DNA of 64,000 nt from Escherichia coli. Its GTDB lineage: Bacteria > Pseudomonadota > Gammaproteobacteria > Enterobacterales > Enterobacteriaceae. Below, piece by piece: positions 29,099 to 29,467 of the stretch (positions within the stretch are counted from its first letter, which is position 1; every line of letters starts with the position of its first letter). The stretch lies in the NCBI RefSeq assembly GCF_001677475.2, contig NZ_CP015229.1, one strand, 5' to 3'. Below the pieces are notes generated by a model. It had not been told where the DNA came from. It ran no database searches and worked only from the letters and a program-made list of their open reading frames with translations. The translations under genes were made by a program, and so were the position numbers.

Positions 29099-29203
29099 GA
29101 AAAATCAAAAGGTTAGAAAATTTTCTTGGAATAAATGTCTTAAAATCGTACACGAAAAATCAATAAATTACATAACATTAAAGAAAAATATTCCAAGCCT
29201 TTC

Positions 29204-29233
29204 TTGACCTTTTTCGCTATCTGGATCTATATT
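29204..29233 (+). promoter_or_regulatory. candidate sigma70 promoter (TTGACC-18 nt-TATATT)
   Basis: near-consensus -35/-10 pair by eye; no experimental support. Confidence 0.3.
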
Positions 29234-29467
29234 CTCGACGCAACCGCAAAATCGGTTGTCGGGATTGGTCTCCCGGATGAAAAAGGCGGCAATAGGCGCG
29301 CTCGCGTCTTTTTTATTGCCGTTTGCATAGCCACACTCGCATTATGGTGGGTTGGCGGTGGCGCTCCGGCGCGCCGGTTCCTTTTTCCCGGTAAGACCAA
29401 CGCCGTCAGCTCACCACCCTGATTGGTCTCAGGTTGGTGATGATTCACATAGAAAAAGGATCATCCT

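Follow-up and report, generated by a model that had tools for sequence, protein, structure and literature searches.

[quoted passage not shown] The C4 RNA of P1/P7 is cut from a common transcript, with RNase P acting at its 5′ end, and represses Ant synthesis. RNAs of the isrK family are expected to accumulate as species of ~75 nt, bind Hfq and activate antirepressor translation in trans. The repression of antirepressor translation by C4 in P1/P7 proceeds via the downstream sites (PMC12197685). In Gifsy-1, IsrK supplied in trans increased the translation of the antirepressor gene anrP more than 100-fold and bound the region, and point mutants of IsrK lost this activation (PMC4825925). The substitutions G28A and G31A de-repressed anrP translation, with C162U and C159U as their compensating partners (PMC4825925). 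Co-expression of the downstream RNA STnc1160 did not antagonise the toxicity of IsrK, and the protein sequence of orf45 was not conserved (PMC4825925). The same authors considered seqA of P4 a structural homologue of IsrK and raised the analogy with seqA and CI (PMC4825925).

The locus described here is an ordinary, previously described type of prophage regulator. It lies in a window of 64,000 nt (the whole stretch of DNA that was analysed), which is E. coli chromosome, as dsrA, rseX, msrPQ, zinT and yodB were all found in it. We consider the locus to be the E. coli counterpart of Gifsy-1 isrK, acting as the leader of a P1 immI-type operon with a decoy that sequesters C4; we put the probability of this reading at roughly 0.8. 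The prophage end, the promoter and the leader RNA comprise the following features.

29024–29084, minus strand: 3′ fragment (61 nt) of tRNA-Ser serU, marking the left prophage junction (attL core)
29204–29233, plus strand: sigma-70 promoter, TTGACC-18 nt-TATATT, 10 of 12 consensus positions, predicted start near 29240
29240–29314, plus strand: IsrK-type small RNA, ~75 nt (Rfam RF01394, 72.9 bits against a cutoff of 50, model positions 1–77 of 77)
29240–29259, plus strand: hairpin 1, 7 bp, GCAACCG/CGGUUGU, with the loop GCAAAAUC
29260–29275, plus strand: hairpin 2, CGGGA/UCCCG, whose loop bears site L1
29265–29271, plus strand: site L1, UUGGUCU, exact complement of AGACCAA in C4
29279–29286, plus strand: site S1, GAAAAAGG, in the linker; proposed decoy that resembles a Shine-Dalgarno sequence and is exactly complementary to CCUUUUUC of the C4 loop
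29294–29314, plus strand: intrinsic terminator, 6-bp GC-rich stem (29294–29309) and T6 run (29309–29314)
29287–29321, plus strand: outer 8-bp stem, CGGCAAUA/UAUUGCCG (DNA CGGCAATA/TATTGCCG), 29287–29294 with 29314–29321

The leader RNA begins with hairpins 1 and 2, continues with a single-stranded linker and ends in the intrinsic terminator, which was also found in the alignment of related modules. The outer stem encloses the terminator hairpin and can form only in read-through transcripts. The RNA scored above the gathering threshold over the full length of the isrK model and was accompanied by its own promoter, a 3′ intrinsic terminator and the context of the type locus; judged by its sequence, 29240–29314 is a promoter-driven small RNA gene of the known IsrK kind. 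The model of the upstream C4 targets (RF03163, c4-a1b1) overlapped it at 29227–29279 with 42.7 bits, below its cutoff of 46.7, and homologues including Gifsy-1 scored 47.8–50.1 bits at the same position. Rfam keeps isrK outside the C4 clan, though isrK and c4-a1b1 overlap at the same position in several phages. The fold z-score of the single sequence was not exceptional (−1.31), and it is comparison with relatives, not single-sequence statistics, that supports these features as real. The hairpin-1 loop GCAAAAUC (29245–29252) is highly conserved in both Rfam consensus sequences, and no complement to it was found anywhere in the module; it might conceivably serve in recognition by Hfq or an RNase. 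The loop was fixed in our own search pattern, so that the loci found with it are uninformative on loop conservation.

The DNA downstream of the leader RNA contained a second curated RNA, further copies of the recognition sites, the antirepressor gene and an insertion element.

29340–29421, plus strand: C4 antisense RNA (Rfam RF01695, 59 bits against a cutoff of 45)
29379–29387, plus strand: C4 site S′, UCCUUUUUC, in a hairpin loop
29394–29400, plus strand: C4 site L′, AGACCAA, single-stranded
29418–29433, plus strand: hairpin presenting site L2 (UUGGUCU, 29423–29429), the second loop-target copy
29452–29460, plus strand: site S2, GAAAAAGGA, 9-nt exact complement of the C4 loop, including the Shine-Dalgarno sequence
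29468–29971, plus strand: ORF6N-domain antirepressor gene, AnrP homologue (Pfam PF10543, E 9e-22)
29956–32365, plus strand: IS21-family insertion (istA 30049–31548, istB 31545–32300)

The isrK and C4 elements are 25 nt apart on the same strand. The target sites occur twice on this strand, once in the IsrK part and again 3′ of C4 before the antirepressor, and L1, S1, L2 and S2 are exact complements of C4 over 7, 8, 7 and 9 nt, respectively. They are arranged antiparallel to their counterparts in C4, which is a requirement for pairing. S2 includes AAGGA, and the Shine-Dalgarno sequence lies 7 nt before the ATG at 29468. Thus labelled, L denotes a loop site and S a Shine-Dalgarno-type site; these neutral labels may not correspond one-to-one to the a and b of P1. 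Of the features that characterise C4 in P1/P7, those found here were a match to the curated model, a long outer stem, two exposed stretches and complements on both sides, the downstream pair of which covers the ribosome binding site.

UCACCA (29411–29416), which forms the 3′ side of the C4 outer stem, has a second potential partner downstream in a GGUGGUGA-type strand (29435–29440). This alternative helix encloses the hairpin at 29418–29433 and covaries in the 46 aligned modules (83.7% paired; at one pair, UA in 30 and CG in 13). This helix and the C4 stem cannot form together, a situation that may be equivalent to structures A and B, the alternatives reported for Gifsy-1.

The module at 29227–29470 was matched in 1092 of 5426 complete E. 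coli genomes, or about one in five, and some genomes carry up to three such modules. In one relative, it occupies the end of a prophage that has integrated into ompW. Among phage records, it was found upstream of antirepressor genes of Stx phages, and also in phiV10-like phages, Enterobacter phages and Gifsy-1; its position is downstream of gene Q in Gifsy-1 and in the nin region in Stx phages, and it also occurs in a P1-size contig. RefSeq annotates the protein alone at the equivalent place in relatives. An isrK element followed by C4 was identified in 11 of the 12 related loci tested with Rfam, including Gifsy-1 and the P1-size contig (92.8 kb). Further loci were added by a pattern scan of viral contigs, which fixed GCAAAATC and the CGGG/CCCG stem and so made those positions uninformative. 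The scan gave many chance matches in unrelated GC-rich contigs, and requiring the C4 outer-stem signature removed about half of 120 loci.

An alignment of 46 distinct modules (MAFFT) revealed covariation within both RNAs and between them. In hairpin 1, 98.8% of cells were paired and six of seven pairs showed compensatory changes; the corresponding values for the C4 outer stem were 99.3% and seven of ten. The pairing of the hairpin-2 loop site with C4 held in 98.8% of cells and that of C4 with the downstream loop site in 96.9%, each with compensatory changes at six of seven pairs. For these two long-range pairings, none of 500 shuffles reached the observed covariation, and slid controls were 29%–55% paired. 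The outer stem around the terminator was 73.7% paired (22%–50% when slid), with compensatory changes at five of eight pairs and variants such as CGACAA/UUGUCG, CGCAUA/UAUGCG and GGACACA/UGUGUCC. The Shine-Dalgarno-type site was only ~50% paired when scored by alignment columns, as its register moves from one sequence to the next in the MAFFT output, and its support comes from an alignment-free comparison of complementary matches within and between loci. In that comparison, the median lengths of complementary words were 7, 7, 6 and 7 nt within loci and 3, 4, 3 and 4 nt between loci; for S1 the medians were 6 and 3 nt, and for S2 7 and 4 nt. The 46 modules contained at least about 20 full-length (6–8 nt) loop-site words and about 30 Shine-Dalgarno-site words, matched within each locus. 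The two kinds of word occurred in many combinations: UUGGUCU was accompanied by GAAAAAGG, CUACAAAGG or GUUAUCGG, and GAAAAAGG was also found with UUGGCGU.

These results bear on an earlier sequence-only reading of this DNA. Its hairpins at 29241–29258 and 29260–29275 were both recovered (as 29240–29259 and 29260–29275), as was its 8-bp stem at 29287–29321 around a GC-rich segment and T6; the covariation analysis across related prophages that it had called for found compensatory changes in hairpin 1 and in the outer stem. The near-consensus promoter that it had placed at 29204–29233 is present in that form, and its position is kept in relatives. The short structured transcript that it had proposed just inside the prophage end maps ~150 nt from the end marked by the serU fragment. 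That reading did not include the C4 antisense and antirepressor context, in which the hairpin-2 loop and the linker duplicate the C4 target.

The promoter boxes are TTGACC (29204–29209) and TATATT (29228–29233). Promoter and terminator scans by themselves were at chance level for the region, with three promoter-like sites found against 2.3 expected. Of 69 related modules, 45 nevertheless had a promoter of the form TTGnnn-17/18-TAnnnT at this offset, though the upstream DNA was unrelated, and the P1-like group had TTTACA-17-CATAGT at the equivalent place. Only two genomes shared DNA upstream of 29227, which places the start of homology at the −10 box, irrespective of where the other prophages are integrated. 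Therefore, the promoter spans a mosaic junction, with the integration module on one side and the antirepressor module on the other, and the DNA peculiar to this integration module is confined to 29088–29226. The −35 box and all DNA 5′ of it were common to just two genomes, as opposed to ~1090 other E. coli prophage copies that matched from 29227 onwards. Between the att core and the promoter, A/T-rich direct repeats (GAAAAATCAA…) occur 55 nt apart at 29099–29120 and 29154–29175, and an imperfect 20-nt inverted repeat pairs 29125–29144 with 29178–29197; these repeats are possible integrase arm or IHF sites. The promoter spacer contains CCTTTTTC (29208–29215), which matches the C4 recognition stretch exactly and is the complement of the GAAAAAGG decoy. 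As it lies upstream of the predicted start and is missing in the ompW-integrated relative, this match is probably due to chance.

The closest relative with experimental data is Gifsy-1. When Gifsy-1 was numbered with the first AUG of orf45 as A107 (PMC4825925), +1 fell seven nt after TATATT. In this numbering, G28 and G31 belong to the hairpin-2 loop UUGGCGU, and C162 and C159 are part of ACGCCAA in the C4 element. Since these residues land in the loop and in C4, the published ‘helix b-I’ corresponds to the pairing of the leader with C4 at the loop site. The ‘orf45’/STnc1160 region of Gifsy-1 (locus L123, 2616–2699) was recognised as C4 by the curated model (69 bits). The two loci share the promoter type (TTGACn, 17–18 nt, TATATT), a three-hairpin RNA with an intrinsic terminator, a downstream C4-like element with the same arrangement of a loop site and a Shine-Dalgarno-type site, and an antirepressor of the ORF6N family, with 59% identity between the proteins. 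They differ in their site words, which are UUGGUCU/GAAAAAGG here and UUGGCGU/UCACCG in Gifsy-1, and in their genomic position, as the present module is located at the extreme end of the prophage by attL (a serU-integrated lambdoid prophage with a contractile tail) and not downstream of gene Q. In Gifsy-1, a 45-aa ORF ends in ATGA and is thereby coupled to the antirepressor start. In contrast, no equivalent of orf45 exists here: the ORF from the ATG at 29344 has 16 codons, ends at 29394 and lacks a Shine-Dalgarno sequence. A further difference is that the antirepressor here is truncated by an IS21-family element.

The arrangement also resembles that of P1/P7, with a promoter followed by an upstream target copy, an antisense RNA, a downstream target copy over a ribosome binding site and the antirepressor. 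A P1-size contig (L032) had the same layout, with 77.9 bits for isrK and 77.7 bits for C4, and the variation of site words between phages is as expected for heteroimmunity. Unlike in P1/P7, no icd-like ORF was present (no ORF at 29421–29468), the target is the antirepressor's own Shine-Dalgarno sequence, and the antirepressor is a short ORF6N protein. Moreover, the element resides in an integrated lambdoid prophage with CI/Cro-type immunity rather than in a plasmid prophage with C1. The CI RNA of P4 is likewise a processed antisense RNA flanked by two target copies (seqA and seqC) on the same transcript; however, it acts by premature transcription termination of replication genes and not by blocking an antirepressor ribosome binding site. 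These comparisons join two literatures, as the sequence evidence equates the proven IsrK helix of Gifsy-1 with the pairing of the upstream target and C4 in P1.

According to the decoy mechanism that we favour, the constitutive sigma-70 promoter at 29204–29233 would start transcription near 29240, and most transcripts would end at the intrinsic terminator (29294–29314) to give an RNA of ~75 nt. Read-through transcripts would bear C4 (29340–29421) and the antirepressor mRNA. The C4 stretches UCCUUUUUC and AGACCAA would pair with UUGGUCU (29423–29429) and GAAAAAGGA (29452–29460, the ribosome binding site), which would stop antirepressor translation and keep the prophage repressor active. UUGGUCU and GAAAAAGG of IsrK would then represent a second target copy that competes with the mRNA for C4, either in cis or as free RNA, and a high level of IsrK would de-repress the antirepressor and favour induction. 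This scheme builds on the observed family membership, the complementarity of the sites and their covariation across phages. The existence of loop-site pairing and the in-trans activation of antirepressor translation by IsrK are taken by analogy from the Gifsy-1 experiments, and we infer transcription and termination in this strain, the processing of C4 and the direction of the effect. Some points run counter to the scheme. The Gifsy-1 route relies on coupling via orf45, which is not conserved here, and the detailed route of de-repression may differ from that in Gifsy-1. In addition, a simple titration model fits poorly with the failure of STnc1160 to antagonise IsrK toxicity in Gifsy-1.

The same sites could instead support autoregulation of the P4 type, in which C4 binds L1 and S1 and enforces the termination of IsrK in the manner of the P4 CI RNA at seqA; the leader would then be a cis-acting attenuator of c4–ant read-through, and the short RNA would be its by-product. 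S1 lies directly 5′ of the terminator, 29277–29288 is complementary to 29305–29316 on the side of the U-tract, and the conserved outer stem spans the terminator; the seqA/CI analogy raised for Gifsy-1 (PMC4825925) points in the same direction. However, IsrK activates antirepressor translation in trans in Gifsy-1 and its point mutants are inactive, which would not be expected of a pure by-product, and we therefore treat attenuation as a tentative and rather doubtful account of the locus, albeit one that may coexist with the decoy mechanism. Orthology with isrK-orf45-anrP would also suggest the exact Gifsy-1 mechanism, in which IsrK frees the ribosome binding site of a short upstream ORF that spans the C4 region, and coupling to this ORF is the sole means of translating the antirepressor. 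This is very improbable and is contradicted by the sequence here: the ORF from 29344 is only 16 codons long and terminates within C4, at a distance of 74 nt from the antirepressor start, which makes coupling impossible. The antirepressor, moreover, has its own Shine-Dalgarno sequence within S2, and the orf45 protein sequence is itself not conserved (PMC4825925).

Two readings that dispense with a regulatory RNA are hardly credible. The sequence-only reading had left a choice between a prophage small RNA and integrase arm-site DNA. The position ~150 nt from the attL core and the A/T-rich stretch at 29088–29203, with its GAAAAATCAA-type direct repeats 55 nt apart, would suit an attP arm; however, 29227–29470 is conserved away from att in Gifsy-1, Stx phages and the P1-size contig as well as in ompW-site prophages, and its variation obeys RNA base-pairing rules. 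The arm-site interpretation was thus rejected for 29227–29330, as other phages carry the same module at a distance from att sites, and the small RNA was retained as a member of the curated isrK family. The overlapping ORFs of 72 and 73 aa, which the same reading had taken to be non-coding, are present and might in principle encode small proteins, but the region is fully covered by two curated RNA models. No Pfam match was obtained for the 72-, 73- and 77-aa ORFs and no PHROG match for the 72- and 73-aa ORFs; among the 46 homologues, no open frame was consistently kept and 14 had none at all. The protein-coding interpretation of the RNA region was accordingly discarded, given ORFs without a Pfam match and frames that are not conserved.

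The target gene of the decoy mechanism is damaged in this strain. The antirepressor is 59% identical to Gifsy-1 AnrP, and its intact 186-aa homologue matched the anti-repressor family PHROG 2379 (E 1e-89). The IS21-family element breaks the gene near codon 163 of 186, so that the native sequence ends at 29955 and the 3′ end is displaced by the insertion. Collinearity with the sister genome NZ_CM135959, which has the intact 186-aa gene, restarts at 32366. The RNA switch thus probably now controls a defective, truncated gene in this strain, and the insertion suggests that this route of induction is disabled.

The locus merits annotation as isrK and C4 RNA genes regulating an ORF6N antirepressor. 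As it belongs to a family and a system that are already curated and have been studied by experiment, its remaining value lies in this annotation, in the equivalence of IsrK with the C4 leader and in the diversity of the sites. The matched diversity of the two recognition sites constitutes a data set on the specificity of RNA-based immunity among temperate phages. A more speculative extension, which we think unlikely to hold, is that the IsrK leader serves generally as an ‘anti-antisense’ decoy, within an RNA immunity code that combines two sites, and cross-titrates the C4 of other phages. Such cross-titration would be possible because the loop and Shine-Dalgarno-type words assort independently among phages. 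If this is true, the IsrK RNA of one prophage would titrate the C4 of a co-resident or incoming phage with which it shares sites, leading to cross-induction, and mismatched pairs would stay insulated.

The genomic setting was reconstructed by comparison with NZ_CM135959, a nearly identical sister genome. ARAGORN found no complete tRNA at 29024–29084, and this serU fragment corresponded to positions 30–90 of the intact tRNA-Ser that adjoins the integrase in the sister genome. There, an intact serU and a tyrosine integrase lie ~46 kb away, and the intervening DNA is a lambdoid prophage: its immunity region is of the CI/Cro type, it carries gene Q, its head is lambda-like and its tail is contractile. 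No second copy of the serU fragment, which would mark the other prophage end, was found within the window. This puts the isrK-type RNA ~150 nt into the prophage from its left end. The serU remnant of the host differed from the intact, phage-restored tRNA-Ser (L125, 4027–4087) by two substitutions, both compensatory in the variable-arm stem (GUAGGGG…CUCUAC and GUGGGGG…CUCCAC). The yodB region (window positions 27582–28576) was missing from the otherwise collinear NZ_CM135959, in which the BLAST blocks restart at 28577. Comparison with the sister genome also placed STnc100 and genes for tRNA-Thr and tRNA-Gly inside the prophage, downstream of the Q region. Together with DsrA and RseX in the chromosomal part, these make up the other curated RNAs of the window, at 10782–10868, 19204–19293, 58167–58342 and 60068–60221.
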